Below are positions 2,316-63,800 of a DNA stretch of 64,000 bases, piece by piece; the stretch's first letter is position 1; each line of letters begins with the position of its first letter. A program made the position numbers and the translations under genes. This stretch comes from Dictyostelium discoideum (Eukaryota), in the NCBI GenBank assembly GCA_000004695.1, contig CM000155.2, positions 3,392,001-3,456,000 on the forward strand, in the 5' to 3' direction. The notes below the pieces were generated by a model. It saw only the letters and a list, made by a program, of their open reading frames with translations, had not been told where the DNA came from and made no database searches.

Positions 2316-2642
2316 TAAAAAATTACAATATAATATATTTAATTCAATTAAATTCTCTAAACTTTTAATTAATTTTGATAATTTTAATAAATTTAATTTA
2401 CATTGTTTTAATGATAATGTTGATGTTGATTTAAATGATGATAATATTTTTATTGGTAAATCTAGTATATCATTATTATTAAATTCTAAGAAATGTATTG
2501 TTTCTTTACAATATTTATTCCACTTTTTATCAATTAATGTTAATTGAAAATAATCTGCTGTTAATCTATTATTACTAATTAATGAAATAATCTTTTTAAT
2601 TATTATAACTGGTAATTTATTAATATTATCAACACTAATCAT
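240..2642 (-). CDS. Leucine-rich repeat protein (ribonuclease-inhibitor-type LRRs) with poly-N/S/T low-complexity inserts
   Basis: 800-aa uninterrupted ORF. Repeated LxxLxLxxNxI / LDLSxNxIGxxGAxxL units (e.g. LNLSSNCIEDSGASSF, LDLSSNSLGNYGVSVL). Homopolymer N, S and T runs. Confidence 0.75.
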
Positions 2643-2925
2643 TTTTTTGATTTTTTATTTTTATTTTTATTATTAATATTAATATTATTATTATTATTAT
2701 TATTATTATAAAAAATGATAAAAAAAGGAAAAAAATAAAAACTAAAAATATAAAGGAGAAGGAATTAATTTCTTTTTTTTTTTTTTATTTTTTATTTTTT
2801 GTATGTAAAAAATAAGAAAATATAAAAAAAAAAAAAAAAAAATTTGTTTTTTAATTTTTATTTTTTATATGTGAAATTATTTATTTGTGTATATAGATTA
2901 ACTGTTATTAAAAACATTGAGAAAA

Positions 2926-2950
2926 GTGTGTGTGTGTGGTGTGAGTGAGT
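2926..2950. promoter_or_regulatory. GT/CA-rich 'G-box'-like element (gtgtgtgtgtgtggtgtgagtgagt) in a divergent promoter region
   Basis: Lies between the minus-strand LRR gene start (2642) and the plus-strand coiled-coil gene start (3178). Similar (GT)n blocks sit at 10381-10394 and 27323-27340, upstream of minus-strand genes. This resembles the G-rich GBF-type promoter elements described in Dictyostelium. Confidence 0.3.
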
Positions 2951-3177
2951 ATTGTTTATTATAATTAATATTAAAATTTAAATTTAAAAAAAAATAAAAA
3001 ATAAAAAATAAATAAAAAAAAAAAAAAACTGAAAAATTAATTTTTTTTTTTTTTTTTTTTTGTAAAAAAACACAACCAATTTCCTCAAATTAGATCAACA
3101 ATAATTCGATATTTATTTTTTTAATTTTTCTTTTTTTTATATTGCCACCATTTTAATATTAAAAAATAAATTTTATT

Positions 3178-3787
3178 ATGACTAGTGTAAGCAGTGATAG
3201 TAGAAAACAATTTAAAGGTTCAGGTGATCATGTATTTGATTTTGATAATAAAGAAAATCATGATTTCCTTTCATTAACAATAAAACAAGATAATAATAAT
3301 AATAATAATAATAACACCAATGTTTCATTATCACCATCAATTAAAAGTCAAGCAACATCTTCCACTGGTGGTAATAAGAATCAAATATTTTCACAAATGA
3401 GAGAATTAGATAAAAAATCATTAATGTTAATTGAAACTTATTATAGAGATAAATTAATAACTTATCAAGAAAAGTAAGTTATAATTTTTAAAATAAACAA
3501 ATAAAAACAAATGAAAACAAATAAATTAATTAATTAATAAATAAATACTAACTAATTTTTATTTATTATTATTATTATTAGATTAAAAAGAGAATTAGAA
3601 CAAATATATAATAAAAAATTACAATCATTAAAAATTCAATATGATAGTGATTCTTATTTAAAATTTAAACAATTTGAACTTGAAACTAAAAAAGCATTAT
3701 TGTTACTATTAAAAGAATTCCAAGATTTAAAGAAATCAAAACAACAACAAGAAAAACAATTAAAATTACAACAAATTAAACAAGAGA

Positions 3788-4138: not shown

Positions 4139-4259
4139 AAATAAAATAATAGTAATAATTGTTGTAATATTATAAAAAAAGATGTATTTTCTTTATTATT
4201 AATTTTTTTATTTTTTATTTTAAAATATACATATATATAGCGCGTTTTATATATATATA

Positions 4260-5009
4260 TTAATTTGTTGTATTTGTATCAGGAGTTGTAATTGTTGTTT
4301 TTGATTGATCTATTAATTCTGGGAAAATATTGACAAATTCGTGAATTTCATCTATACAATAATCGACATGAGGATCATTTGAAGTAGCACCAACCAAAAC
4401 AGTGTACATACCAGCTTTTTTTGCTTCTACTAAATTCTCTACAACATCATCGAAAAACACACAACCAGATGCATCGGTAGTGTCAGCTTTTTTCATTGCC
4501 ATTTGGTAGGCGACTGGATGAGGTTTTGAAAAGTCCATCATTTCTAAATAATCTAACCAAGCATCGAAACAATCATCAATTTCCAATTCACGTGTAACAC
4601 GTTTACAATGACCAATGTCGGCATTTGAAAAGATCACCTTTTTGACACCACTCTTTACACTCTTGAGACATGCATGTAATCGTGCATCTGGTTTTAAATG
4701 ACTCTTTAAATCTAATCCACCATGAACATAATCTAAATATTTGTCAATGTTTACTTCATGATTCATCATTAAACCTTTTAATGTGAGGCCATATGTTTTA
4801 TAATAATGATTTCTAACTTTATCTACCTCTTCCATTGGTAAATTCAATATGATTGACATATATTGAGTGATTCTATTACTAACTTGTGCTGCTAATCCAC
4901 ATGATTTTGGATATAATGTATTATCTAAATCAAATAATAATGTATGAATTTTACGTTCACCATTATTCTTTATTAAATTATCTGTTGAATTAATTTCTGC
5001 TACTGTCAT
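4260..5009 (-). CDS. HAD-superfamily hydrolase (SDT1/pyrimidine 5'-nucleotidase-like, subfamily IA)
   Basis: 249-aa ORF. N-terminal HAD motif I 'LLFDLDNTLY', and later 'VFFDD' motif IV-like. Single exon. Confidence 0.8.
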   Translation of the reverse strand: MTVAEINSTDNLIKNNGERKIHTLLFDLDNTLYPKSCGLAAQVSNRITQYMSIILNLPMEEVDKVRNHYYKTYGLTLKGLMMNHEVNIDKYLDYVHGGLDLKSHLKPDARLHACLKSVKSGVKKVIFSNADIGHCKRVTRELEIDDCFDAWLDYLEMMDFSKPHPVAYQMAMKKADTTDASGCVFFDDVVENLVEAKKAGMYTVLVGATSNDPHVDYCIDEIHEFVNIFPELIDQSKTTITTPDTNTTN

Positions 5010-6571
5010 TTTTATTTATTTATTATTGTAATTATTTTTTTATACTAATAAAAAAAAAAAAAAGGAATATTATGTTAATTTTTTTTTTTTTTTTTTATAA
5101 TATATAAATAAATATTTTAAAAGAGAGAGATAGAGATAGAGAGAGTGAAAGAAAGAGTGAATGAATTAATGATAAAAAAAAAAAAAAAAAAAAAAACCTA
5201 TTTATATTTAAAATTTAATATTGCCATTTAATTTTTTTTTTTTATTTTAAAAAAAAAAAAATAAAATATGTGGGATGGTGGTAAGTGTTTATTTAGGGTG
5301 TGTTTATTATGTATAATTACCAGTTGGGGAATTTGGGGGTTTAAAATGCCAAAAAAAAAAAAAAAAATTTTTTTTAAGAGGGGTGGTGTATATATATGTA
5401 TTTGAAGGAATGTAATAGTATTAAAAATTGTAATAATACCCAATAAGAAAGTTTATAGATAATGGTTTGTAATAAAATTATTATTATTATTATTATTATC
5501 TATGTTTTGAAATTATTTGTTGTAATTAATTTGATGGTATGGAAATAAAAAAAAAATGATAAAAAAAAAAAAAAAGGTGGGTTTTTTTTTTTTTAATTTT
5601 ATTTTTTTTTTTTTTTTCAAATTTATCAAAATTTTAGGAAAATAAAAATTAAATTAATTAAAATATTTTTTTTTTACCCCCCAAACCGCAAGGCACCAAA
5701 ATTTTTTTTTTAAGCAGTTATAATTCATCACTATTTTGAAACAATAACGAAAATGAATTTCATTTTTTTTTTTTCCCTAATAAATGACAAAAAATAATAA
5801 AAAAAAAAGAAAAAAAAATAAAAAAAAATAAAAAAAAAAAAAAGAAAAAAACAATTAAACAAAAGAAAAATTAATTAATTAAAATTTAAAAAAAAAATGA
5901 TTTGAAAAAAAAAAAAAAAAAAAAAATATAACCAAATGGTGCCAGGTGGAAGTTTCTAGCACTAAAAAGGTGTAAAATTATTTTTTTTTTTTTTATTTTT
6001 TTTTTTTTTTTGGTGTATGCAAACGTTATTTTAATATAACCTTAATCAAATTTAAAAAATTAAAAAAAAAAAAAATTTAAAAAAAATAAATTATTTAAAA
6101 AACATTTACAAATTTATTTTATAATAATATTATTTTTCGTACATCAAAAAATGTGAAAATATTTTAATTAATTATTTATTTTATTTTGGTTTTTTTTTTT
6201 TTTTTTTTTTTAAACAAAATAATTTTTTTTTTTTTATTTTAATCACCACTTTTAAATTTGATTAAATAAATAATTTTTTATTTATTCATTTTTAAAAAAC
6301 GATATAAAACATTTAACACTTCAAAAAAAAAAAAAATAAAAAAATAAAAAAAAACACTTCAAAAAAAATAAAAAATAAAATATAAAAATAAAAAATAAAA
6401 TCTTAAAAAACCACATATAAAATTTTCCATATCGGTATTAGTATTATTAATTTTATATTATTCTAAAATTAATCATTTATAGTTTTTATAATAAAAATAA
6501 TAATTATAATAATAATAATAATAATCCAAATTCGTAATAAGGAATAAAAAAAAAAAAAAAAAAAAAAAAAA

Positions 6572-29823: not shown

Positions 29824-30083
29824 ATGATTTTTTTAAATTTTTATTTTTTTGGGTTTGGGTGCAGTGTTTTCACCTTATTTTGTTTTGTTTTTTTATTTTT
29901 AAAAACATTCCAAAAAAAGATGAAAACTAAAAATATTCAAAAACCATTACCACAAAAAAGAACATCATATTTTTATTGTATAAATATAAAGAATTTAACA
30001 ACAAATGTAGATAAAATTATAACAATATATCCACAAAATTGTGATTGTACTTGTAATTGTTCATTCCCTTTCTCTCAAACTAG

Positions 30084-30141
<58 letters not shown>

Positions 30142-31548
30142 AATACTACAACAAAAACAACAACAAGATCAACATCAAAATCGACATCAACATCAACATC
30201 AGCAACAACACCAATATTTCAATTAGAAGGTAGTGGTGAATGTACATGTAGTTGTAATTGTGAAAATAATAATAATAATCAAATAATAACAGGTAAAAAT
30301 AATAATGAATTAATATTTAAATATTTTAAATTTAAATGTTGTTTATGTCTATGCCATAATAGAGAATTTTATTTAAAAATTATTCAATTAAAATCATCAA
30401 CTACATTATTAGATAAATGTTTTATTGAAGAGTATAATACTTTTACAAAAGTAGTAACTTCAAATAGTAATAATAATAATAATGATGAGGAAGAAGAAAA
30501 AGAAGAAGAAGAAGAAGAAGAAGATATAAGAATTTATTTTAATAATTTAAATAATAATGAATTTATTATTAATGATTATAGTAGTGAAATATTTTTAAGT
30601 ATACAACAAAATAATAAAATTATAAAATATCATTTATGTATTGACGAATTACCATTGAATAAATTTAAGAATTTTCAATTTTATAAGAATAAATTAAGTT
30701 CTAAACCAGATGGTGATCGTATTGATGCAATTCATGCAGAATGGTATAACAATTTAAATAAATTAGAATATCATCATGGTTATGTTCAATGGTTATTCCC
30801 ATTATATGCAAACAATGGTATGAATTATCAAGCATATGCATTGGATAGGATTGAATCGAAATTATTTAGAAATGATATTGATATTGCAAAGAGAATCATT
30901 AAATCCTATGAATTAATGTTAAATTTCTATGGTATTAGATTAGTTAATAAACATACTGGTCAATTGGAAAGATCAAAAGATTTACAGCATTCAAAGAAAC
31001 AATTCAATAATTTATCAAATAATTCTCATAATAATTTACGTATTAGTAGAATCATCACTTTCTTAGGTTTAGTTGGTTTTAAAAGATATAAAAAACCTTT
31101 AGTAGATTTCTTAAAATATCATATTAATAATGGTAATTTATCAATTTCAAAATATAGTATAAAAAATTATTGGGAACCTTTAATTGATTATTCAAAATCA
31201 AATTCAAAATGGTAAATACTAAAAATAAAAAAATAAAAAAATAAAAAAATAAAAATAAAAATAAATAACTTTTTATTAATATCTAAATTTATTTTAAGGT
31301 ATTTTGAAAATACATTAGAGAATGATAATGATAATGAAGAATCAATTTATTTTCATTATATTCATGATATTGAAAGAGCAGAGAATCAAGAGAAACAAAA
31401 GAATGAAGAGAAAGATAAAACAGAGAGTGTAGAGGAAGAATATGATATAAATGACGATGATGATGATGGGACAGATATTGAAGATTGTAGTAAAAAAATT
31501 TTTAATGATAAATATAGTTTACATCAAAATAATTATTTATATAATTAG
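29824..31548 (+). CDS. Opioid-growth-factor-receptor (OGFr) conserved-region family protein, 2 exons (intron 31212..31298)
   Basis: The core YHHGYVQWLFPLYANNGMNYQAYALDRIESKLFRNDIDIAKRIIKSYELMLNFYGIRL matches the OGFr N-terminal conserved region. Cys-rich CxCxC motifs plus poly-Q and acidic tracts. The terminal exon after a GTAAAT donor encodes WYFENTLENDNDNEESIYFHYIHDIE...*. The true start may be the internal Met near 29920. Confidence 0.55.
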
Positions 31549-32367: not shown

Positions 32368-33363
32368 ATGGAATGTTCGGAATCTTTAGAATTAGTTGAT
32401 AAGTTTGCATGTGGTCATATTTTATCTAGAATGTTTAATGTTGTTATGAAACATTCAATTTGTGATTTATTAGAAGATGGACCAAAACATTATTCAGAGA
32501 TTTCAAAAATTATTGGATTTAAAGATGATTCTTATTGTTATAGATTAATGAGATATTTTGTACCTCGTAAATTATTTAAAGAAAGTGTCGTTCAAGTTGG
32601 AGTATTTTCAAAAACACCATTTAGTACTGAATTTTCAAATAATGGAACATTGAAAAAACTTGCAAAATTTCATTGTAATAGTTTCCATTATAAGCTATCA
32701 CAAGTTTTACCAGAAACTTTAGAAATTGGTGAAAATCAAGGACCTTCATCAATAGGATTATCAGATTATTGGGAACAAATTGAAAAGAATGAAATCTATA
32801 AAAATGAATTTAATGATGGTATGATTGGTTATACAACACATATTTTAAAATTTTTAAAAGGTAAAATTGATTTATCAAAATTTGAAACAGTGGTTGATAT
32901 TGGTGGTAGTCATGGTTATTTAATTGGAAGTTTATTAGATAGGTACCCAAATGTTAATGGAATTAATTTCGATACTGATATGGTTATTAATTCAAGTAAT
33001 GAGAAATACCAACATCCAAGATTAAAACATGTTGCTGGTGATTTCTTTAAATCTGTACCAGAAGCTGATTGTTACTTAATGAAACTCATTCTTCGTTGTT
33101 TTTCTGATGAAAAATGTTGTGAACTTTTAAAAATAATTTCAAAATCAATGAAATCAAATGCTAAAATAATCATTTTAGATATTATTTTAGATAGTTCAAA
33201 ATATTTAAATTTTGATACTTATTTAGATATTTTAATGATGGAAACACTTGATGGAAAACAAAGATCTTTAAGTGAATGGATAAAATTATTTGAAATGTCT
33301 GGTTTTAAAATTGATAAATATGAAAGTGGTTCTCCAAATTATTTAATAATTTCAAAGGAATAA
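32368..33363 (+). CDS. Class I SAM-dependent O-methyltransferase (COMT/plant-type OMT family), paralogue 1
   Basis: VVDIGGSHGYLIGSLLDRYPNVNGINFD (SAM-binding VDVGGGxG-like), HVAGDFF, LDIILD. About 55% identical to the neighbouring OMT. Carries LILRCFSDE in place of LHDWSDE (see findings). Confidence 0.85.
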   Translation: MECSESLELVDKFACGHILSRMFNVVMKHSICDLLEDGPKHYSEISKIIGFKDDSYCYRLMRYFVPRKLFKESVVQVGVFSKTPFSTEFSNNGTLKKLAKFHCNSFHYKLSQVLPETLEIGENQGPSSIGLSDYWEQIEKNEIYKNEFNDGMIGYTTHILKFLKGKIDLSKFETVVDIGGSHGYLIGSLLDRYPNVNGINFDTDMVINSSNEKYQHPRLKHVAGDFFKSVPEADCYLMKLILRCFSDEKCCELLKIISKSMKSNAKIIILDIILDSSKYLNFDTYLDILMMETLDGKQRSLSEWIKLFEMSGFKIDKYESGSPNYLIISKE

Positions 33364-34308: not shown

Positions 34309-35418
34309 ATGTCAGATTGGGATAAAACTATGGATTTATTATTTGGATTTGTTACTGGTCATATTCATTCTAGAATGTTTGAAACAATATTAAAATTTTC
34401 AATTTGTGATTTATTAGAAGATGGACCAAAACATTATTCAGAGATTTCAAAAATTATTGGATTTAAGAATGAATCCTATTGTTATAGACTAATGAGATAT
34501 TTTGTACCATATAAATTATTTAATGAAAGTGTTGTTCAAGTTGGACTATTTTCAAAAACACCATCAAGTACACAATTTTCAAAGAATGGAACATTGAAAA
34601 ATTTAGGAAGATTTCATTGTCAAGATCATCATTATAGAATATTTGAAAGTTTACCAAAAACTTTAGAAATGGGTAAAAATCAAGGACCTTCCTCGATTGG
34701 ATTATCAAGTTTTTGGGAACACTTTGAAACTGATGAATCCTATAAACAATTATTTCACAATGCTATGAAAGACTATACTTCATTAATTATTGATAGATTA
34801 ATATCAAAGATTAGCTTATCACCAAATTTTAAAACTGTAGTTGATATTGGTGGTAGTCATGGTTTTTTAATTGGTAAACTTTTAGAATCAAATCCAAATA
34901 TTCATGGTATTAATTTCGATTTAGAAAATATTATAAATAGTTCAACAAGTAAAAATGAGAATTTTCAACATCCAAGATTAAAACATGTTTCAGGTGATTT
35001 CTTTAATTCAGTACCAGAAGCTGATTGTTACATTTTGAAATATATACTTCATGATTGGTCCGATGAAAAATGTATTACCATTTTAAATAATATTCATAAA
35101 TCTTTAAAACCAAATGGTAAATTATTCATTAATGATTTAGTACTTGATCCATCAAATTATACAAAAGAAGCTGTTTTTAAAGATATTCTAATGATGCAAT
35201 ATTTTGATGCTAAAGAAAGAAGTATTAATGAATGGCATCAATTATTTGAAAAATGTGGTTTTAAAATTGATTCAGTTGATACTTCAATTTCACCACAATT
35301 AATGATTGTTTCAAAAATCAATTCTTCAAATATTAATTTAAATGATTGTACAAATTTTAATTCTGAAATTGTTGAAGAAAAATTAAAAAATTCATTACCT
35401 CAATTTGTAAATTGTTAA
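34309..35418 (+). CDS. Class I SAM-dependent O-methyltransferase (COMT/plant-type OMT family), paralogue 2
   Basis: VVDIGGSHGFLIGKLLESNPNIHGINFD, HVSGDFF, ILKYILHDWSDEKCITILNNIHKSLKPNGKLFINDLVLD (canonical catalytic His in HDW). Confidence 0.85.
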   Translation: MSDWDKTMDLLFGFVTGHIHSRMFETILKFSICDLLEDGPKHYSEISKIIGFKNESYCYRLMRYFVPYKLFNESVVQVGLFSKTPSSTQFSKNGTLKNLGRFHCQDHHYRIFESLPKTLEMGKNQGPSSIGLSSFWEHFETDESYKQLFHNAMKDYTSLIIDRLISKISLSPNFKTVVDIGGSHGFLIGKLLESNPNIHGINFDLENIINSSTSKNENFQHPRLKHVSGDFFNSVPEADCYILKYILHDWSDEKCITILNNIHKSLKPNGKLFINDLVLDPSNYTKEAVFKDILMMQYFDAKERSINEWHQLFEKCGFKIDSVDTSISPQLMIVSKINSSNINLNDCTNFNSEIVEEKLKNSLPQFVNC

Positions 35419-35574: not shown

Positions 35575-36498
35575 ATGATACCAAAATTTTTAACAATTTT
35601 AATTATTTAAATATTAATTTTAAATGTTTTTTCAAATACAATAAATAAAAATAATATTAATTTAAATTTTAAAAAAAAATTAAAACTAAAATTATCTTCA
35701 AATTTATTAAATGTTCATATAGTACCACATACACATGAAGTAAATATTTTTTTTTTTAATTTTTAATAAATTTTTAAAAAAAACAAATTTTAATTTATTT
35801 TTTCATTTGATTAAAAAAAAAAGGATGTTGGATGTGTAAAAACAGTTGATGAATATTATTATGGTAGTAATATGACAATAACATTTAAAGCAGTACAATA
35901 TGTATTGGATAATGTTATTCAATGTTTATTATCAAATCTTGATAGAAAATTTATATATGTAGAGATAGCATAATTTGAAATGTGGTGGAATGAACAAACT
36001 GATTCAATGAAACAAAAAGTTAAATCATTAGTAGAGAGAGGTCAACTTGAATTTATAAATGGGGATATTGTATAATGAAGGTACAACTTATTATCATGAT
36101 ATAATCGATCAAATGACATTAGGTCACCAATTCCTATGGGAAACATTCCAATTTATACCAAAGATTGGTTGGCATATTGATCCATTTGGACATAGTTGTG
36201 ATTTTTGTTATTTAAATGCACAAATGAATTTTAAAAATATTGATAAATTAATTGATTATATAAATTCATCACCTGAAAATTTTGGTTTAAATTTATTATA
36301 TTCAACTCTCTCAATTTATATAGATGCTGTAAATGATACAAATTTAATTTGGGATATTAAAACTGATGATTTCTTTCCATATGCTGATAATTATTATAGT
36401 TTTTGGACTGGTTATTATACAAGCCATCCTTCATTAAAAGGTTATATTCGTCAATCTAGTTCATTACTTCATTCAGTAGATCAATTATTAGTTACAAC

Positions 36499-36535
<37 letters not shown>

Positions 36536-36721
36536 TTAAAAGAATATCAATTATTAATTAATAGTTTAGAACCATTAAGAAAAGCAATGGCAATTGTTCA
36601 ACATCATGATGCAATTTCAGGTACTGAAGCTGAATTTGTAGTTAGTGATTATATTAATAGACTTTCAATTGGTACTAATTTATCATTTAAAATTTTAAAT
36701 AATTTAATTGGTAATTTATTA

Positions 36722-36820
<99 letters not shown>

Positions 36821-37093
36821 TATAATTATAATAATGATAATGAAAATTTGAATAATGAATTAATAATTTTAGAGAATAAATTAATTTTAATAAGATTTAA
36901 TAAAAGTGATGGATCAATAATTTCAATTAAAAATAAAACATCAAGTTTAGTTTTAGAAATTTCTCAAGAGTATATGTATTATATTTCTTCAACTGGTGAT
37001 ATTGAAAGTAGACAAAAAAGTGGTGCATATATATTTAGACCATGGATTGATAATATGTCATTACCATATGGTGGTTTTTTTTTTAATCTTTAA
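35575..37093 (+). pseudogene. Glycosyl hydrolase family 38 (alpha-mannosidase) pseudogene or truncated paralogue
   Basis: GH38 signatures VHIVPHTHEDVGC... and GWHIDPFGHS appear in different frames. In-frame TAA (YVEIA*FEMWW), at least 2 frameshifts around FINGG / GYCIM / NEGTTYYHD, long (AAT)n insertions. The ORF stops after ~340 aa, whereas GH38 enzymes are ~1000 aa. Confidence 0.5.
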
Positions 37094-48073: not shown

Positions 48074-51000
48074 TTATATTGATTTTAAATTTTTAAAATA
48101 ATTATAGATCCAATCGAATGTGAAGGTGTATCAAGTGTATTTAAAGAATCAAGAGAAAAACCATTATTAATTGGATCAATTAAAGCAAACATTGGTCATT
48201 TAGAACCAGCAAGTGGTGTTGCAAGTTTAGCAAAAGTAGCATTAATGTTTAAACATCGTCAATTTGTAAAAAACATTAATTTCGATAAACCAAATCCAAA
48301 TATCAAATTTGATGAATGGAAAATTAAAGTCTGTACAGAGAATACACCATTCCCAAATAATAAGAAAGTATCAATTGCAATCAATTCCTTTGGTATTACA
48401 GGTAGCAATGCATGTTTAATTTTAACTGAATATATTAAACCAAAAACTACAACAACCACAACAGCTAACAATAATGGAAATCAAAAGTATTTAATACCAA
48501 TTTCAGCAAATTCAAAATCATCATTAGAATCATATAAAGAAAAATTAATTAATTCAAGTAAAGAATTTTCAGAAACTATTAATTTTAAAGATTTTGTTAA
48601 ATATCAATTAGATTCAAAAACTTTAAAATTAACTCAAAGATCAGTTATTATTGCAAGTAATTGGGAAGAAGCTGGAAGCACTCAATCAATTGTAACAACT
48701 AATACAAATAGATCAGGAAATATTATTAAAGATGCCAATAAGAATCCACAATTAGTATTCGTTTTTAGCGGTCAAGGTCCACAATGGTCAAAAATGTTCA
48801 CTCAACTTTATGATCAAGAACCAATTTTCAAACAAAAAACTGATCAAATTGATTCATTATTATCAAAACATTATGGTTATTCAATTTTAAATAAATTAAA
48901 TTCAATTAAAGATGATGATACAGTTACAATTAATGAACCAATTTTAGCACAACCATCAGTATTTATGATTCAAATGGCTTTGATTGAATTATATAAACAT
49001 TGGGGTATTTTAGCATCAATTTCAATAGGTCATTCACTTGGTGAAGTTTCAAGTGCAGTTTGTTCAGGTATGATTGATTTAGAAACTGGATGTTTTATCA
49101 TATATCATCGTTCAAGATTACAACAACAAACAGTTGGTAGTGGTAGAATGTTAGTAGCTTCATTAAATGAACAACAATTTAATCAAGAATTTCAACAAAA
49201 ATATCCATCAATTGAAATCTCTTGTTTTAATTCACCATTCTCAATCGTATTAGCAGGTAAAGAATCAGAATTACAAGAAATTTCAAATATCTTAAAAGAG
49301 AAAGAAACATTTTCAATATTTTTAAGTACACAATCATCATTCCATTCATCGTCACAAGAACCTATTAAAGATGAATTATTAAAACAATTAAAAGATATTA
49401 AATCAACCAAATCAAATATTCCAAATTTTTCAACTGTAACTTCCAATTTATTTAATGATAATGATGATGATGAAGTTGTTCAACAACCTGATGAAGCAAG
49501 TTCTCACAACAGCACAACAACTTTATTTGATTCAAATTATGTTTATGAAAATGTTAGAAAACCAGTACAATTCGAAAAAGCAATTAAAAATGTATTCAAT
49601 TACATTGAAAAAAAAGGTTTAGGTAGTTCAGTAATATTTTTAGAAATTTCAGCATCACCAGTATTAGGAAATTATATTAGAGAAATGATACCACAAGATT
49701 CAAACTATTTCTTTATTGAAGATCAAACTATATCAGTATTATCATCATTAAATAAAAAGAATAAAGATCAAGTATTAGAAATTCAAACAAGTATATCACA
49801 ATTATATTGTAAAGGTTATAATGTCAATTTTAATTGTTCAAATCAAACAAAATCATTGGACTTTAAAAACACCGGATATAAACAATTATCAGATGTTTTA
49901 TTCAAGTATTCATGGGATGATGAATCATATTGGTCTGTATCTCCATTAATTTCAAATTATATTAAAAATGGACCAGCAACTAATCATTTAGGTTATCGTA
50001 ATGAAAGACAACCATATCAATCATTCACATCATCGATTGATATTAAAAAAGAACCATTTGAATTTTTAAAAGGTCACTCAAGTAGAAATAGAGTAATTTA
50101 TCCAGGTTGTGGTTATATTGATAGTATATTAAAAGCATTCCCAGATCAAGATTTAACAATTCAATCAATGGAATATAAATCTGCAATTTTATTATCATCA
50201 TCAATGAAAACTTATTTATCAACAAATATCATACCAAGTGGTAAAAATGAATATCGTGTTTCATTCCATTACAAAGACAAAAAAACAAATAAATGGATTC
50301 TCTCATGTAGTGGTAGACTTTCAACTACAAAACACAATGATGAAGTCGTTAAAAAAGTTGACATTGAAAAATTAAAATCAAAATGTAATTTTGTAACCAT
50401 TCAAAAGAAAGAACTTTATGAAACAATTAAATATAAAGCACAATTAACATTAGAAGGTAAATTCCAAAGTATTGAAGAAGTTAGCTATGGTCATAATTGT
50501 TGTTTATCAAAAGTACCATTAACAACATTATCATCATATGATAATGAATCATTTTTAAATTTATGTGTAATTGATGCTGCTTTTCAACCACTTGGTGCTG
50601 TAAAAGAAAATCAAGAACCAATGGTATTTGCAAGTATTGAAAATTTAAAATTCTTTTCAAAAAATATACCAAAATCAGCAGAAGACAGAGAAAAATATAA
50701 ATTTGTTTATACATATACACAAGTAAAAGAAAAGAAATGTGGATCTTATTTCGTTTCAATTTTAACAATGCTTCAAGATGGTACAATACTATTCTTTTCA
50801 CCATTGGTAGTTTACACTCAATTAACACCATACAAAAATCAATACATAATTGAAAGTCCAAATGATAATTTATATAAAATTTGTTATCAATCAAAAGATT
50901 CAACATTACCACATCCATTATTATTAAAAGATAAATTTGATCAACCAAGATTTGAAACAACTGATAAACAATCTCAAGTAATAAAAAAAGCATTATCAAA

Positions 51001-54000
51001 TTGTTTATTTGCAATCTTTAAGAGAAATAATAATTTATTTACAAAAGTAGAAGTTAAATCACAATCAATTGATTATTTAATTGAAAAGTATTGTTTAATC
51101 ATTGATAATGATGATGATAATGATGGTATCGATGATAATAGTATATTGGTTAATGGTGGTGTAGCATCAATTGATGATATGGTATTAGCAAGTACAACAG
51201 GAAAAGAAACAACAATTGTAAATAATGGTAAAAGATCATTAGCAAAATTAATTTTCCAAATTTTAAAATCAAATGTTGATTTAATCGATTGGAATAATAT
51301 TGCAACATATACAAAAAATATTTCAAAACAACAATTAAATATTATTCAAGCAATTGGTAATTTAATTGTTACACCATTATCAGTAACAAATCAAGTAACA
51401 GAATCAGATTTAATTTCAAAAACTCAATTAGATATTATTAATAATAGAATGAAAATTAAACAATATGAATTAATTTCAAATACAATCGCAACAGATTTAA
51501 TTAAACCAATTATAAATAATAGTATTTTATTCAGAATTTTAGAAATTAATTCAGGATTTGGATATTTATCAGAAATGATAATTAATAAAATTAATCAATT
51601 ATTAATAGAATTTGAAAGTAGTTATGAAATTGAAATTGAATTTACATTCACATTAAATGGTACAAATCAAGATGATAATAAAGAAATTTCAAATTCAATT
51701 AAAGAAAAGTTGACAAATTTATTAATTTCAAAATCATCAATATCAATCATTTTTAAAGAATTAAATTTAAATGAATCATTTTTAGAACAAAAATTTAATC
51801 CATCTTATTATGATTTAATAGTTTTAACAAATTTATCAACAATTACAAATTTAAATGAATCAATTGAATTTATAAATTCAATTTTATATCCAAATGGTCA
51901 TTTAATTATAATTGATACAAAAAATCAATCAAACTTCCAAGATTATGAAATTTTTGAACAATTTTTAATTTTTGATAACTTTGGAGGTGGTATTGTAGAT
52001 GATAATATTGATTGGGTTAAAATATTTCAAGATAATAATATAAATAGGGTTGTTGCAACACCAAATATTAAACCACATGTAATTCAAGTTCAAAAATCAA
52101 AATTATATGAGAAAGTAATGGGTACACTTGATGATATTACAGGGCCATATGATCAAATCATTATAATTGGTTATCAGTTACAAGGTACAGATGAAGATAA
52201 TTTCCAAAGCCCGATTATGGATATTAATAAACAAGGTACAGATATTTATAGAATTAAAACTATTGAAGAATTTGAAAAACATTGTTCGACAATACCACCA
52301 ACAGATAAATCAATTTTATTCTTTATTTCAGCAATGAATAATTTATCATTAGAAAATTATAAACAAGTTAATTTTGATTATATTAAAATCAATCAATATT
52401 TATTAGCAAATAAATTAGGATCTCTATTTATTTTAGCAACTAAAAGTGCATTAAAAGAATCAACCAATGCATTAGCAGCATCATTAATTGGTAGTTTTAG
52501 ATATTTTTCAGAGTTTTCAAATATTTTAAATTTATATTCATTCGATTTTGGTGAGGATGTATATACCCTTTCAAAAGAAATATCATTAAAATGGTTAAAT
52601 ATGGCAATTGATTTACTAGATCCAAATAAACATATTCAAAGAGAATATATTTTTAGAAATGGTAATGAAACTTGGTTTGAAAGAATTGGTAAAATTAAAA
52701 GAGTTAAATCAAAATATCAATCAAAATCATATTTAGATGATAAAGAAGATTCATTAGTCGCAAGATTAGATCAAAATTTAGAATATCAATTAGAGGCAAA
52801 ACAAAGCAATTTAAAAGAAAATGAAATTGAAGTTCAAGTTGTAGCAACAGGTATTAATTTTAAAGATAGTTTAATTTTTAGAAATCTTGTACCACCAGTT
52901 TTAGCAAATCATGAAGGTGATTTTAGTAAACCTGAATTTGGATTCGAATGTTCTGGTATCGTTTCAAGAATTGGTAGTAAAGTTAAAAAGTTTAAAGTTG
53001 GTGATTCAGTTTTAGGTATAAGTTGGAAATCAACATCATCTCATGCCATCAATTATCAAGATGCATTTGTTTTAAAACCAGATAACATTAGTTTTGTAGA
53101 AGCAGCTTCAATACCAATAGTATATTGTACTTCATTCTATTCATTATTTTATTCTGGTAATTTAAGTATTAAAAATAATGAATCAGTATTAATTCATCAA
53201 GCAAGTGGTGGTATTGGTTTAGCATGTTTAAATATTTTAAAATCATGTGGATTTAAATCAAAATTATATGTAACAGTTGGTTCAAAAGAAAAAGAAGATT
53301 ATCTAAGAGAAACCTATGGTGATTTTATAACTGGAATTTATTCATCAAGAAATACAGATTTCCTTGAAAATATTAAAACTGATCTTTCAAATAAAAATGA
53401 CAACAACAACAATAACAACAACAACAACAATGACAACAAAGAAAGTAACATCAAAGAACTTCTTGATAATGATGATGATGAAATTTTACCATTTATTCAT
53501 AAAAAAGGTGTTGATTTAATTATAAATACATTACCATTTGAATTTTTAGATACAAATTTCCTTTTACTTGGTCAAGGTGGTAGAATTGTAGATTTATCAG
53601 TTACTCATTTAAATAATAATGATACAACTGATTTTAGTAAATTCAAATGGTTCATTGGTTATAGTACAGTTGAAATATTTTATAATGGATTTGAAAAATC
53701 AAAACATATATTACAATTAATAACAGATATGATTAAAAATAAAGAATTACCATTAATACCAATTAAAGAGTATCCAATTAATCAAATTAAAGATGCAATC
53801 GACTTTATTGGTCAAAGAAAACATATTGGTAAAATTGTTATAAATCATAAATTAGGTTTAAGAGATGGTTGTTCAAATTTAGTACAAGATACAATTAAAA
53901 GTTTACAAAATCATTTAAAGGATAATTATTTAGTAGCTTCTCCAGATTTTAAATTCATGGGTGATAGTTTAGGTAAAACTATTTTATTAACAGGTCAAAC

Positions 54001-56362
54001 TGGTTTATCATTATCAATCGCTCAAGCTTGCTTATTAAATAATTATCAAGATTTAGAAGGTATAATTGTAATTTCAAAATCACCAATTAAACATGAATTA
54101 CAATATCTCATTTCATTAGCTAAATACCTTTCACGTAAAACTAGAGTTCATTTTAAACAAGCAGATTGTTCTAAATTTGATGAAATGAGAAAGGTAATAT
54201 CAGAAATTTATGAAAAAGATGATCCAAAATTATCACCAGTAGAATCAATATTTCATAATGCATTCGTACCAGTTATGTCAGAACCACAAGATATTGATAT
54301 GAAACATATTGATGATGCATATGATGCTAAAACAACTGGTGCAATGAATTTGTATATGTTAATGAGTATGTATGACTGGAAATTGAAAAACTTTTTTTTT
54401 AGTTCTTCCATTACTTCAGTTTCAGGTAGTTCACGTCAAGCAGGTTATTGTGGTGCAAATCTTGTATTAGAATCAATGGCTAAAGTTATTCAATCTCAAG
54501 GTATAAGATGTTCAACAATTTGTTGGGGTATTATTGGTGATACTGGTTATGTTTCACGTAATGAATCGGTTGCTAAATTTTTAAACGGTCTAGGTAATGC
54601 CCCAATGCCTTTGAATATGGTTTTAGGTTCATTAGATTTATTATTACAACAACCAACCCTATCAACAGATACTACAATCATTGCATCATTTGATTTTAAT
54701 AATTTACCAAAACTATCAAGAGATGGAAGTAATAATATTAGTTATAAATTTGATTACTTTACAAATCCAATTCAATCAAATCAAAATAATTGTTCAAGTG
54801 ATGATCTTTCAATTAGAGAACAAATTCTTGCAAAATTTTCAGAGTTTTTATCAGTCGATGATCAATCTAAAATTAATTTAGATATAAAATTATTAGATTA
54901 TGGTGCAGATTCAATGGTAATTGTAGAGTTAAAGAATTATTTAGATAAAACATATACACCAAATATTTTATCTATACAACAACTTCAAAATATTACAATT
55001 AATCAATTAATTCAATCAGTAACAGATGCAATGAATAAATTAAATGGTAATGAAAATAAATCAATTAAAAAATCAAATAAATTAGTACAACAAAAACAAA
55101 TCGATTGGGTAAAAGAAATTAAATTAGATTCATCTATAAAACCAACTGATGAAATGATTAAATTATTTAAACAACTACAACAACAAGCATCAACAACAAC
55201 AAGTAATACAGTATTTTTAACAGGTTCAAGTGGTTTTATTGGAATTTATATTCTATTTTATTTAATTAAATCAGTTAATTGTAAAATTGTATATTGTTTA
55301 ATTAGAAGAAAAACAATTGAAGAAGCAACAACATTTTTAATTGAATTTTTAAAAGTTCATCAATTATATAATCAATTAACAACAGATGAAATTAATAAAA
55401 TCAAACCAGTATTAGGTGATTATACATTAGATTCATTTGGACTTTCAGTTGATCAATATACAAATATTTCAAATAATGTAGATTTAATTATAAATAGTGC
55501 TGCAAGTGTAAACTATCAAATGGGTTATGAAGATTCAAAAGTTGAAAGTGTAGAAGGTGTACTTCAATGTTTAAGATTTTCATGTCATAATAAATTAAAG
55601 AAATTATTTCAAGTTAGCACTCTTGGCATTTATTCAGATGATAAAAGAGATAATTTAGATGATTATACATTCGCTCAAATTGATCCAAAAATTATTCAAT
55701 CTAAAAATTCAATTATCAATGGTTATTTACAAGGTAAAATCGTATCAGAATATCATATTAAAGAAGCTGCAAATAGAGGTATACCTTGTTGTATCATTAG
55801 ATTACCTTTTATTGGTCCAAATCCAAATACTGGTGTTGGTAGAGATTTAGATTTATTTCAAACATTATTTCAATCATGTTATGCAATGTCAACATATCCA
55901 AAACAAGAATCAGGTCTTCAATTTTATGCAACACCAGTTACTTGGGCAGCTCAAAACTTATCATTCATTTCATTGAATCCAAAATGTTGGTCAACTTCAT
56001 CAAATCATCCATCATCAATTTCAGAAAATTTAACATGCTACAGTTTATTTGGTGAATCAATTTGTTTTAATGTTTTATTAACAGAATTAGCAACACAATT
56101 AAAATGGAAACCAACTTCATCTGGTGAATTTTTAAAGAAATTGAGATCATTCCCAAATGAACCATCTTGTAAAAAACTTCATATTGTCTTAAAAAATACA
56201 AAAAATTTATTACTCAATGTTTATATACCTGGTAATTATAAATTAAATCCAACTTTAAAACAATTACTACAATCAAATAATACTTATGAAGGTTGGAAAA
56301 TTACACCAGAAATGATTTTAACTCATTTATCTTTTATCTTTAAAAAAAAATTAAATAAATAA
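46259..56362 (+). CDS. Type I iterative polyketide synthase (KS-AT-DH-cMT-ER-KR-ACP-thioester reductase), 7 exons, ~3080 aa
   Basis: Exons 46259..46388, 46574..46647, 46882..46990, 47089..47278, 47384..47600, 47734..47995 and 48108..56362. All junctions are GT/AG and phase-consistent. Motifs: KS DTACSSS / HGTSTQIGD / [10 protein letters not shown]; AT GHSLGE; c[12 protein letters not shown]; [14 protein letters not shown]; [13 protein letters not shown]; [11 protein letters not shown]; [12 protein letters not shown] and YLQGK. Confidence 0.9.
46670..46860. repeat. Minisatellite inside PKS intron 2: (aat)n-aaaattacaaat units
   Basis: About 5 tandem ~27-33-bp units, visible directly. Confidence 0.8.
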
Positions 56363-57814: not shown

Positions 57815-60800
57815 TTATTTGTAATTTATAAATTTAATTTTTTTAAAGGTAAAAGATAAATGAGTTAAAATCATTTCTGGTGTAATTTTCCAACCTTTAT
57901 AAGTGTTATTTGATTGTAATAATTGTTTTAAAGTTGGATTTAATTTATAATTACCAGGTATATAAATATTGAGTAATAAATTTTTTGAATTTTTCAAAAC
58001 AACATGAAGTTTATTACAAGATGGTTCATTTGGGAATGATTTTAATTTCTTTAAAAATTCACCGGGTGGAGTTGGTTTCCATTTTAATTGTGATGCTAAT
58101 TCTGTTAATAAAACATTAAAACAAATTGATTCACCAAATAAATTATAACATGTTAAATTTTCTGAAATTGATGATGGATTATTTGATGAAGTTGACCAAC
58201 ATTTTGGATTCATTGAAATGAATGATAAGTTTTGAGCTACCCAAGTAACTGGTGTTGAATATAATTGAAGACCTGATTCTTGTTTTGGATATGTTGACAT
58301 TGCATAACATGATTGTAATAATGTTTGGAAAAAATCTGAATCATTACCAACACCAGTACTTGGATTTGGACCAATAAAAGGTAATCTAATGATACAACAT
58401 GGTATACCTCTATTTGCAGCTTCTTTAATATGATATTCTGATACGATTTTACCTTGTAAATAACCATTGATAATTGAATTTTTAGATTGAATAATTTTTG
58501 GATCAATTTGAGCGAATGTATAATCATCTAAATTATCTCTTTTATCATCTGAATAAACACCAAGAGTGCTAACTTGAACAAATTTCTTTAATTTATTATG
58601 ACATGAAAATCTTAAACATTGAAGTACACCTTCTACACTTTCAACTTTTGAATCTTCATAATCCATTAGAAAACTTACACTTGCAGCACTATTTATAATT
58701 AAATCTACATTATTTGAAAGATTTGTATACTGATCAACTGAAAGTCCAAATGAATCTAATGTATAATCACCTAATACTGGTTTGATTTTATTAATTTCAT
58801 CTGTTGTTAATTGATTATATAATTGATGAACTTTTAAAAATTCAATTAAAAATGTTGTTGCTTCTTCAATTGTTTTTCTTCTAATTAAACAATATACAAT
58901 TTTACAATTAACTGATTTAATTAAATAAAATAGAATATAAATTCCAATAAAACCACTTGAACCTGTTAAAAATACTGTATTACTAGTTGTTGTAGTTGGT
59001 GATGCTAGTTGTTGTTGTAATTGTTTAAATAATTTAATCATTTCATCAGTTGGTTTTATAGATGAATCTAATTTAATTTCTTTTACCCAATCGATTTGTT
59101 TTTGTTGTACTAATTTATTTGATTTTTTAATTGATTTATTTTCATTACCATTTAATTTATTCATTGCATCTGTTACTGATTGAATTAATTGATTAATTGT
59201 AACATTTTGAAGTTGTTGTATAGATAAAATATTTGGTGTATATGTTTTATCTAAATAATTCTTTAACTCTACAATTACCATTGAATCTGCACCATAATCT
59301 AATAATTTTATATCTAAATTAATTTTAGATTGATCATCAACTGATAAAAACTCTGAAAATTTTGCAAGAATTTCTTCTCTAATTGAAAGATCATCACTTG
59401 AACAATTATTTTGATTTGATTGAATTGGATTTGTAAAGTAATCAAATTTATAATAAAGATTATTACTTCCATTTGTTGATAGTTTTGGTAAATTATTAAA
59501 ATCAAATGATGCAACGATTGTAGTATCTGTTGATAGGGTTGGTTGTTGTAATAATAAATCTAATGAACCTAAAACCATATTTGAAGGCATTGAAATATTA
59601 CCTAGACCATGTACATATTTTGAAACTGATTCATTACGTGAAACATAACCAATATCACCAATAGAACCCCAACAAATTGTTGAACATCTTATACCTTGAG
59701 ATTGAATAGTTTTAGCTATTGATTCTAATACAAGATTTGCACCACAATAACCTGCTTGACGCGAACTACCTGAAACTGAAGCAACTGAAGAACTAAAAAA
59801 AAAGTTTTTTAATTTCCAACCATTTAAAATCGCTAGCAAATATAGATTCATTGCACCAGTTGTTTTAGCATCATATGCATCATCAATATGTTTCATACCA
59901 ATATCTTGTGGTTCTGACATAACTGGTACGAATGCATTATGAAATATTGATTCTACTGGTGATAAATTAGGATCATCTTTTTCATAAATTTCTGATATTG
60001 CTTTGCTTATTTCATCAAATTTAGAACAATCTGCTTGTTTAAAATGAACTCTAGTTTTACGTGAAAGGTATTTAGCAAATGAAATGAGATATTGTAATTC
60101 ATTTCTAATTGGTGATTTTGAAATTACAATTATACCTTCTAAATCTTGATAATTATTTAATAAACTGATTTGAATGATTGATAATGATAAACCAGTTTGA
60201 CCTGTTAATAAAATAGTTTTACCTAAACTATCACCCATGAATTTAAAATCTGGAGAAGCTACTAAATAATTATCCTTTAAATGATTTTGTAAACTTTTAA
60301 TTGTATCTTGTACTAAATTTGAACAACCATCTCTTAAACCTACTTTATGATTTATAACAATTTTACCAATATGTTTTCTTTGACCGATAAATTCAATTGC
60401 ATCTTTAATTTGATTAATTGGATACTCTTTAATTGGTATTAATGGTAATTCTTTATTTTTAATCATATCTATTATTAATTGTAATATATGTTTTGATTTT
60501 TCAAATCCATTATAAAATATTTCAACTGTACTATAACCAATAAACCATTTGAATTTACTAAAATCAGTTGTATCATTATTATTTAAATGATTAACTGATA
60601 AATCTACAATTCTACCACCTTGACCAAGTAAAAGGAAATTTGTATCTAAAAATTCAAATGGTAATGTATTTATAATTAAATCAACACCTTTTTTATGAAT
60701 AAATGGTAAAATTTGATCAACATCATCAAAACTTTCATTAATGGTGTTATTTTCTTTGATTTCGTTGTTGTTGTTATTTATTTTTGAAAGATCAGTTTTA

Positions 60801-63800
60801 ATATTTTCAAGGAAATCTGTATTTCTTGATGAATAAATTCCAGTTATAAAATCACCATAGGTTTCTCTTAGATAATCTTCTTTTTCTTTTGAACCAACTG
60901 TTACATATAATTTTGATTTAAATCCACATGATTTTAAAATATTTAAACATGCTAAACCAATACCACCACTTGCTTGATGAATTAATACTGATTCATTATT
61001 TTCAATTTTTAAATTACCAGAATAAAATAATGAATAGAATGAAGTACAATATACTAATGGTATTGAAGCTGCTTCTACAAAACTAATATTATCTGGTTTT
61101 AAAACAAATGCATCTTGATAATTGATGGCATGAGATGATGTTGATTTCCAACTTATACCTAAAACTGAATCACCAACTTTAAATTTTGTAACTTTGCTAC
61201 CAATTCTTGAAACGATACCAGAACATTCAATTCCAAATTCAGGTTTACTATAATCACCATCATGATTTGCCAAAACTGGTGGTACAAGATTTCTAAAAAT
61301 TAAACTATCTTTAAAATTAATACCAGTTGCCACAACTTGAACTTCAATTTCATTTTCTTTTAAATTGCTTTGTTTTGCCTCTAATTGATACTCTAAATTT
61401 TGATTTAATCTTGCGACTAATGAATCTTCTTTATCATCTAAATATGATTTTGATTGATATTTTGATTTAACTCTTTTAATTTTACCAATTCTTTCAAACC
61501 AAGTTTCATTACCATTTCTAAAAATATATTCTCTTTGAATATGTTTATTTGGATCTAGTAAATCAATTGCCATATTCATCCATTTAAATGGTGATCCACT
61601 AGCAATGGTAAATACCATTTCACCAAAATCGAATGAATATAAATTTAAAATATTTGAAAACTCTGAAAAGTATCTAAAACTACCAATTAATGATGCTGCT
61701 AATGCATTGGTTGATTCTTTTAATGCACTTCTAGTTGCTAAAATAAATGGACATCTTAATTTATTTGCTAATAAATATTGATTGATTTTAATATAATCAA
61801 AATTAACTTGTTTATAATCACCCAATGATAAATTATTCATTGCTGAAATAAAAAATAAAATTGATTTATCTGTTGGTGGTATTGTTAAACAATGTTTTTC
61901 AAATTCTTCAATAGTTTTAATTCTATAAATATCTGTACCTTGTTTATTAATATCCATAATTGGATTTTGGAAAAGATCTTCATTTGTATCTTGCATTTGA
62001 TCACCAATTATAATAATTTGATCATATGGTCCTGTTATATCATCAAGTGTACTCATTACCTTATCATATAATTTTGATTTTTGAACTTGAATTACATGTG
62101 GTTGAATATTTGGTGTTACAATAGCATTATTTAAATTATTATTTTGAAATATTTGATTCCAATCAATATTATCATCTACAATACCACCTCCAAAGTTATC
62201 AAAAATTAAAAATTGTTCAAAAATTTCATAATCTTGAAAGTTTGATTGATTTTTTGTATCAATTATAATTAAATGACCATTTGGATATAAAATTGAATTT
62301 ATAAATTCAATTGATTCATTTAAATTTGTAATTGTTGATAAATTTGTTAAAACTATTAAATCATAATAAGATGGATTAAATTTTTGTTCTAAAAATGATT
62401 CATTTAAATTTAATTCTTTAAAAATGATTGATATTGATGATTTTGAAATTAATAAATTTGTTAACTTTTCTTTAATTGAATTTGAAATTTCTTTATTATC
62501 ATCTTGATTTGTACCATTTAATGTGAATGTAAATTCAATTTCAATTTCATAACTATTTTCAAATTCTATTAATAATTGATTAATTTTATTAATTATCATT
62601 TCTGATAAATATCCAAATCCTGAATTAATTTCTAAAATTCTGAATAAAATACTATTATTTATAATTGGTTTAATTAAATCTGTTGCGATTGTATTTGAAA
62701 TTAATTCATATTGTTTAATTTTCATTCTATTATTAATAATATCTAATTGAGTTTTTGAAATTAAATCTGATTCTGTTACTTGATTTGTTACTGATAATGG
62801 TGTAACAATTAAATTATCAATTGCTTGAATAATATTTAATTGTTGTTTTGAACTTGTATTTGTAAATGTTGCAATATTATCCCAATCGATTAAATCAACA
62901 TTTGATTTTAAAATTTGGAAAATTAATTTGGCTAATACTCTTTTACCATTATTTAAAATTGTTGTTTCTTTTCCTGCTGTACTTGCTAATACCATATCAT
63001 CGATTGATGCTACACCACCATTAACTAATATACTATTATCATCGATACCATCATTATCATCATCATTATCAATGATTAAACAATACTTTTCAATTAAATA
63101 ATCAATTGATTGTGATTTAATTTCTTCTTTTGTAAATAAATTATTATTTCTCTTAAAGATTGCGAATAAACAATTTGATAATGCTTTTCTAATTATTTGT
63201 GATTGCTCATCAGTTGTTTCAAAATTTAATTGATCAAATTTATCTTTTAATATTAATGGTGATGGTAATGTTGAATCTTTTGATTGATAACAAATTTTAT
63301 ATAAATTATCATTTGGACTTTCAATTATGTATTGATTTTTATATGGTGTTAATTGAGTGTAAACTACCAATGGCGAAAAGAATAGTATTGTACCATCTTG
63401 AAGCATTGTTAAAATTGAAACGAAATAAGATCCACATTTCTTTTCTTTTATTTGTGTATATGTATAAACAAATTTATGTTTTTCTCTATCTTCTGCTGAT
63501 TTTGGTATATTTTTTGAAAAGAATTTTAAATTTTCAATACTTGAAAATAACATTGGCTCTTTATTCTCTTTTACAGCACAGAATGGTTGAAAAGCAGAAT
63601 CAATTACACATAAATTTAAAAATGATTGATTATCATATGATGATAATGTTGTTAATGGTACTTTTGCTAAACAACAATTATGACCATAGCTAACTTCTTC
63701 AATACTTTGGAATTTACCTTCAAATGTAAATTGTGCTTTATATTTAATTGTTTCATAAAGTTCTTTCTTTTGAATGGTTACAAAATTAGTTTTTGCTTTT

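Follow-up and report, generated by a model that had tools for sequence, protein, structure and literature searches.

In O-methyltransferases (OMTs) of the COMT-like class, the His of the conserved His-Asp-Trp (HDW) block is the general base (PMC10491745). The same fold has also been put to other uses. The fungal OMT-fold pericyclases LepI and FinI (PDB 6iv7, 5zzd, 6ix5) have an Arg at the position of the catalytic His (Arg295 of LepI and Arg313 of FinI align with His313 of OxaC), and both have kept SAM binding; RdmB is an OMT-fold hydroxylase (PMC10491745), and AlpH likewise no longer methylates (PMC10477347). In the noscapine biosynthesis of opium poppy, the class-II OMT paralogues PsSOMT2 and PsSOMT3 form a heterodimer with one catalytic subunit (PMC6730481).

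In Dictyostelium discoideum, omt12 is a prestalk-bias marker, and its expression in growing cells predicts stalk fate (PMC7318147). According to PMC11832675, which cites Ghosh et al. (2008), the omt12 product is likely to modify MPBD, the alkyl-resorcinol product of StlA. For its tandem neighbour omt11, a search of the searchable literature retrieved no biochemical, expression or interaction data; the only mention found is as a test target in a CRISPR methods study (PMC9250498), and the RNA-seq supplement of an omt12 paper contained no entry for the gene. The protein is named 'Probable inactive O-methyltransferase 11' in UniProt (Q54B60, OMT11_DICDI), in an entry that is a prediction only, and the core finding, that a catalytic residue is gone, is thus already known. 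What is added here is the loss of a further Asp, Trp and Glu, the stepwise history of these replacements, and the purifying selection acting on omt11.

The window, i.e. the whole stretch of D. discoideum DNA that was analysed, is 64,000 nucleotides long; it has about 20% G+C and contains poly-Asn and poly-Gln tracts. The features discussed below are collected in Table 1. An exact-sequence look-up matched Q54B60 over all 331 residues and assigned it to D. discoideum AX4. omt12 lies 945 bp downstream of omt11 on the same strand, and the two encode O-methyltransferase paralogues that are 61% identical. Both match PF00891 (Methyltransf_2) far above the cut-off of 22.3 bits (123.3 bits for omt11, over residues 126-314, and 146 for omt12). 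omt11 is without the C-terminal tail of about 35 residues that is present in omt12. All seven genomes examined have the two genes in tandem, and in each of them a PPR gene and an OGFr_N gene lie upstream of the pair.

Table 1. Position of the omt11/omt12 features and of the surrounding genes in the 64,000-nucleotide window.
Feature	Position	Strand	Remarks
Opioid-growth-factor-receptor N-terminal domain protein	29824..31215	+	PF04664, E = 6e-47
omt11 coding sequence	32368..33363	+	331 aa, single exon; XP_628928.1 / UniProt Q54B60
N-terminal dimerisation-domain segment of omt11, residues 29-85	32452..32622	+	probable gene-conversion tract; omt12 counterpart 34396..34566
SAM-binding motif I of omt11, VVDIGGSHG, residues 175-183	32890..32916	+	intact
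Arg243 Cys244 Phe245 of omt11 (CGT TGT TTT)	33094..33102	+	replaces COMT His269 Asp270 Trp271
Gln298 of omt11 (CAA, GKQRS)	33259..33261	+	replaces the conserved Glu of GKERS/GKERT (COMT Glu329), which positions the catalytic His
omt12 coding sequence	34309..35418	+	369 aa; active tandem paralogue; UniProt Q54B59, 'O-methyltransferase 12'; HDW and GKERS-type Glu intact
His Asp Trp of omt12 (CAT GAT TGG)	35050..35058	+	intact catalytic block
GH38 alpha-mannosidase fragment	36059..37093 and following	+	Glyco_hydro_38N and middle domain
Type I polyketide synthase ORF	48245..56362	+	begins with the KS C-terminal extension
Type I polyketide synthase ORF	57815..63970	-	runs to the end of the window

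The original prediction had pointed to omt11 because the His of the HDW block, kept in omt12, appeared to be replaced, with the SAM-binding motif VVDIGGSHG intact in both paralogues. All of this is borne out by the codons and the alignments. The sequence LILRCFSDEKC of omt11 stands opposite ILHDWSDEKC of omt12, in frame and free of indels for tens of residues on either side. In phmmer alignments to solved OMTs, Arg243 falls under the catalytic His of LaPhzM (PDB 6c5b, LLLHDWDD) and of COMTs (WICHDWSD and WILHDWSD). The alignment to characterised OMTs proposed as a check places Arg243, through omt12, at COMT His269.

The premise that this His acts as catalytic base also holds (PMC10491745), and its partners Asp and Glu are replaced in omt11 as well. 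COMT numbering was carried over to omt11 through the omt12 alignment to alfalfa COMT 1kyw; with this numbering, the Glu of AKERS in omt12 is COMT Glu329, and COMT Glu297 has its equivalent in an Asp, which omt12 carries in INDLVL and omt11 in ILDIIL (Asp271). In the acidic set that positions the His, the equivalents of Asp270 and Glu329 have become Cys244 and Gln298 in omt11, and only that of Glu297 remains. The Glu-to-Gln change is an additional loss that the original prediction had not noted. Overall, an acidic catalytic corner (His/Asp/Glu) has given way to one that is cationic or neutral (Arg/Cys/Gln). Because His, Asp and Glu are all gone, deprotonation of a phenol with base assistance would be very unlikely in OMT11.

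The remainder of the protein has kept the features of the family. The SAM-binding residues Asp177, Gly179, Asp202 (in INFD, the ribose-binding residue), Asp225 (in GDFF, the adenine-binding Asp of the GDxF motif) and Lys239 (preceding the His loop) are present in every omt11 allele, from which we infer that SAM binding is retained. Of the pocket, Tyr/Phe144, Phe148, Met152 and Tyr155, hydrophobic residues shared with omt12, are kept and correspond, through the omt12 alignment, to COMT Phe172, Phe176, Met180 and His183; omt11 and omt12 differ at the positions equivalent to COMT Ile316 and Asn324. The match of omt11 to the dimerisation-domain family PF08100 is under the cut-off (21.4 vs 25.6 bits). 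The AlphaFold2 model, built from a 17-sequence alignment, has a pLDDT of 87.4 and a pTM of 0.82. In Foldseek searches this model aligned over its full length (about 340 columns) with the two-domain OMTs LaPhzM, MmcR, DtpM, AlpH and human ASMT, with TM scores of 0.84-0.88. As modelled, then, omt11 encodes a complete, well-folded two-domain protein of the class-II (COMT-like) OMT fold.

When set beside the described systems, omt11 shares with alfalfa COMT (1kyw/1kyz), LaPhzM (6c5b) and MmcR (3gwz) the PF00891 domain, the dimerisation plus Rossmann architecture and the SAM-binding residues, but it differs from alfalfa COMT in the replacement of His269, Asp270 and Glu329. With OMT12 (Q54B59) it has in common the two-domain fold, the SAM motifs and a near-identical N-terminal segment; OMT12, however, keeps His-Asp-Trp and Glu where omt11 has Arg-Cys-Phe and Gln. 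With LepI and FinI it shares the change of the catalytic His to Arg combined with retention of the SAM-binding residues. The resemblance to LepI is nevertheless distant (E = 5e-9, limited to omt11 residues 175-316, for 6iv7 and 5zzd), the residue following the Arg is Asp296 in LepI and Cys244 in omt11 (by transitive equivalence), and LepI and FinI have a fungal PKS-NRPS cluster as their context.

The replacement of the His is rare in the family. A set of 1.84 billion cluster representatives (50% identity) was searched, and the best 150 were aligned to the family profile. The catalytic His was present in about 97% of the aligned domains among these nearest 150; it was missing in only two other proteins of the 150, which read GNV and LDW, and in none of them was it replaced by Arg. 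Domain arrangement varied among the nearest representatives. One protein has two OMT domains, both without the catalytic His (GNV); a 1183-aa protein contains four OMT stretches, and proteins of 1134 and 2284 aa carry C-terminal OMT domains.

Homologues from other group-4 dictyostelids allow the losses to be placed in order. In a neighbour-joining tree, an omt11 clade comprising AX4, two more D. discoideum assemblies, two D. cf. discoideum, D. citrinum and one D. firmibasis copy has 100% bootstrap support; usable support in this tree is confined to the omt11 clade and a few others, and for both D. firmibasis and D. dimigraforme the position of the upstream copy is uncertain. Within the clade, D. 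firmibasis has LHDWSDEKC..AKERS as its catalytic block (codons CAT GAT TGG / GAA), D. citrinum has LHCWPDKEC..SKERS (CAT TGT TGG / GAA), and the five alleles of the D. discoideum complex have LRCFSD(E/D)KC..KQRS (CGT TGT or TGC TTT / CAA). By parsimony, the Asp-to-Cys change arose on the branch shared with D. citrinum, before D. discoideum and D. citrinum split, and the His-to-Arg, Trp-to-Phe and Glu-to-Gln changes on the stem of the D. discoideum complex. A sequencing or assembly error in the reference genome can be excluded, and we regard its probability as negligible; nothing was found to favour it, and the codons CGT TGT/TGC TTT ... CAA recur in five distinct alleles, taken from D. discoideum and D. 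cf. discoideum assemblies that are independent of one another.

These two branches carry about 19 unambiguous replacements, and four of them are exactly the catalytic-corner positions (hypergeometric P about 8e-6), which are invariant in all the other family members sampled. The omt11 alignment was also inspected for a new His on the branches where His243 was lost, and none was gained there; the sole acidic gain on them is Asn275Asp, which restores a residue that omt12 also has. Because there is no new His and the only acidic gain is shared with omt12, any relocated base would have to be a pre-existing residue. It could accordingly be proposed that OMT11 is still an ordinary phenol O-methyltransferase, in which such a residue serves as base or proximity alone suffices. 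For some bacterial members of the family, among them DnrK, a reliance chiefly on proximity effects has been reported. This precedent, together with the preserved SAM-binding and hydrophobic pocket residues and the retained Glu297 equivalent, Asp271, would speak for an ordinary enzyme. However, the acid/base network lost three of its four residues together, no His and no acidic residue beyond Asp275 has appeared, and the His is close to universal among the nearest 150 family representatives; we consider this explanation improbable.

It is uncertain which of the D. firmibasis and D. dimigraforme copies are orthologous to which D. discoideum gene, owing to a swapped gene order in D. firmibasis and to conversion-like mosaics. 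The D. firmibasis locus (2625..3650 and 4255..5259) shows the D. discoideum arrangement reversed, with the omt12-like copy upstream of the omt11-like one, and around the HDW block the nucleotide identity of its two copies is 92-95%. In D. firmibasis and in D. dimigraforme (5001..6044), the upstream copy has the omt11-like motifs DCYLMK and EKCCE in sequence that is otherwise omt12-leaning. The pattern suggests mosaic histories for these copies.

It might be supposed that a gene which has lost its catalytic residues is simply decaying, as the original prediction had considered. In fact, the omt11 ORF is without frameshift or stop in six assemblies. Pairwise omega, estimated with our own GY94/F3x4 likelihood-ratio test among the five alleles that already carry R-C-F, is 0.06-0.12, and neutrality (omega = 1) is rejected each time at p<1e-10, although the five alleles are related and the pairwise tests therefore non-independent. 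Since F3x4 models inflate dS in very AT-rich genomes such as this one, the Nei-Gojobori (NG86) estimate, which is less affected by the extreme AT bias, was also obtained, and it gives 0.09-0.32. For omt12 in the same genomes, most pairs fall at 0.07-0.16 (ML) and 0.19-0.33 (NG86). The dN/dS comparison between the two paralogues, which had been suggested as a check, did return a low value (omega 0.15), but at about 1.4 substitutions per codon, with synonymous sites probably near saturation and a conversion tract confounding the estimate; it is moreover mute on the period after the loss of the His, and the within-clade comparisons were used instead. Judged from these comparisons, purifying selection on omt11 after the catalytic loss is as strong as that on omt12.

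Three Tajima relative-rate tests gave no significant acceleration of omt11: 39 vs 25 changes for omt11 vs omt12 (p=0.08), 21 vs 15 for the D. discoideum vs the D. citrinum omt11 (p=0.32), and 27 vs 33 for the D. discoideum omt11 vs the HDW-bearing D. firmibasis copy (p=0.44). The derived Arg, Cys, Phe and Gln are themselves invariant in the five alleles, with a synonymous TGT/TGC difference only, while 50 other positions vary; if the four codons were neutral, the chance of observing no replacement in them would be about 0.03 with the NG86 dS and about 0.0006 with the ML dS. This is suggestive of constraint on the derived residues. What could be cited for a duplicate drifting towards a pseudogene is the catalytic loss itself and a slightly higher divergence, omt11 being 82% identical to its D. 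citrinum orthologue vs 87% for omt12. Against the intact reading frame, the low omega, the relative rates and the confident fold model, this is insufficient, and the idea of decay was rejected as very improbable. Because selection still keeps the protein intact, omt11 would encode a working, non-standard protein and is not a dying gene.

The N-terminal dimerisation-domain segment of omt11 has a history of its own. In this segment, omt11 and omt12 are 88-95% identical in nucleotides, with an identical run of 69 nt, vs 71-73% outside it. Per codon, the divergence amounts to 0.34 in the segment and 1.56 elsewhere, and because omega is similar in the two parts, the lower divergence means that dS in the segment is low as well. 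In D. citrinum and D. cf. discoideum, there are within-genome variants common to both copies. Gene conversion between omt11 and omt12, ending short of the catalytic block, is the probable cause. One of the CRISPR guides against omt11 finds an off-target site with a single mismatch in omt9 (PMC9250498). Further D. discoideum omt paralogues thus share near-identical 20-nt stretches, in keeping with concerted evolution of the family.

A homogenised N-terminal segment in a tandem pair that has been kept would be compatible with a shared dimer interface. In related OMTs, the N-terminal helix reaches into the active site of the partner subunit. It should be noted, however, that the first 25 or so residues are the part least conserved between omt11 and omt12, which counts against OMT11 being a partner of OMT12. 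A heterodimer of the PsSOMT2:PsSOMT3 type, hypothetical for OMT11 and OMT12, would fit circumstantially with the tandem pair found in seven genomes and with the homogenised N-terminal segment.

The reading that we prefer, with somewhat better than even confidence, is that OMT11 is a maintained pseudo-enzyme that binds SAM and a ligand and acts as a dimer, perhaps as a partner of OMT12. The general-base apparatus was dismantled in two steps, first by the change of Asp to Cys and then by those of His to Arg, Trp to Phe and Glu to Gln. The protein would no longer perform base-assisted O-methylation of phenols, yet it is maintained, and it most probably works through binding of SAM or SAH and of a ligand, as a dimer and possibly together with OMT12. 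Several observations agree with a pseudo-enzyme: the catalytic residues are lost, the fold (as modelled) and the cofactor site are kept, and purifying selection has continued after the loss. The loss of methyl transfer appears likely from the residues replaced, and a binding or partner role may be proposed by analogy with the described systems. The conservation of the derived Arg, Cys, Phe and Gln argues that the pocket is in use, and it fits ligand binding and a new catalytic role equally.

The second of these roles would make OMT11 a re-purposed catalyst, whose remodelled pocket still does chemistry. Two forms of it can be envisaged. In the first, methyl transfer would need no base, the acceptor being an anion from the outset and held by Arg243; a carboxylate, a thiolate or a very acidic chlorinated acyl-phloroglucinol would be such an acceptor. 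In the second, the protein would depend on SAM for a reaction other than methyl transfer, as do the pericyclases LepI and FinI or the hydroxylase RdmB. Several observations agree with such a change. LepI and FinI are marked by His-to-Arg at this very position (Arg295 and Arg313), and neither can do without the Arg in catalysis (PMC10491745). AlpH, an OMT-like Mannich enzyme (PMC10477347), is among the best structural matches of the omt11 model. The SAM-binding residues are intact, the derived residues are conserved beyond neutral expectation, the change in charge from His/Asp/Glu to Arg/Cys/Gln would suit an anionic or carbonyl ligand, and two type I PKS genes are found 13-25 kb downstream. 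On the other hand, LepI is among the weakest of the PDB matches, and the equivalence of Arg243 with the LepI Arg is transitive, through the catalytic His of OMTs. In addition, only a single young lineage, the D. discoideum complex, has the change, and any new chemistry would therefore be recent. On balance, re-purposing seems to us possible but rather unlikely.

A bolder version, to which we give equally limited credence, is that a duplicate of an alkyl-resorcinol OMT swapped its His/Asp/Glu base for Arg/Cys/Gln within the last few million years of the D. discoideum lineage while keeping SAM. The outcome would be either a catalyst of a SAM-dependent reaction other than base-assisted methylation, reached by the His-to-Arg switch that also gave rise to LepI and FinI, or the specificity-setting, non-catalytic subunit of an OMT11:OMT12 heterodimer acting on polyketide signals.

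Whether as the binding protein that we favour or as a catalyst of a new kind, omt11 offers a tidy natural case of how the duplicate of an enzyme becomes a pseudo-enzyme or gains new chemistry, and it is useful to add to the existing annotation that 'inactive' does not mean a dying gene. The intermediate states survive in living relatives, as HDW in D. firmibasis and as HCW in D. citrinum, so that the switch could be retraced by experiment. D. discoideum lends itself to genetic work, CRISPR guides against omt11 are available, and omt12 is a known cell-fate marker tied to a polyketide signal.

The omt11/omt12 pair may lie in a polyketide neighbourhood. Both PKS ORFs of the window are very large and encode acyltransferase, enoyl-reductase-like, KR and ACP domains and a terminal NAD_binding_4 reductase domain. 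The KS of the plus-strand PKS must lie in an upstream exon, because the ORF begins with the KS C-terminal extension. The PF04664 gene is directly upstream of omt11, a position kept in all the related genomes, and in its product poly-Gln and Cys-rich repeats precede the domain. The GH38 gene that follows omt12 is evidently split over several exons or ORFs, and it contains long poly-Asn interruptions.
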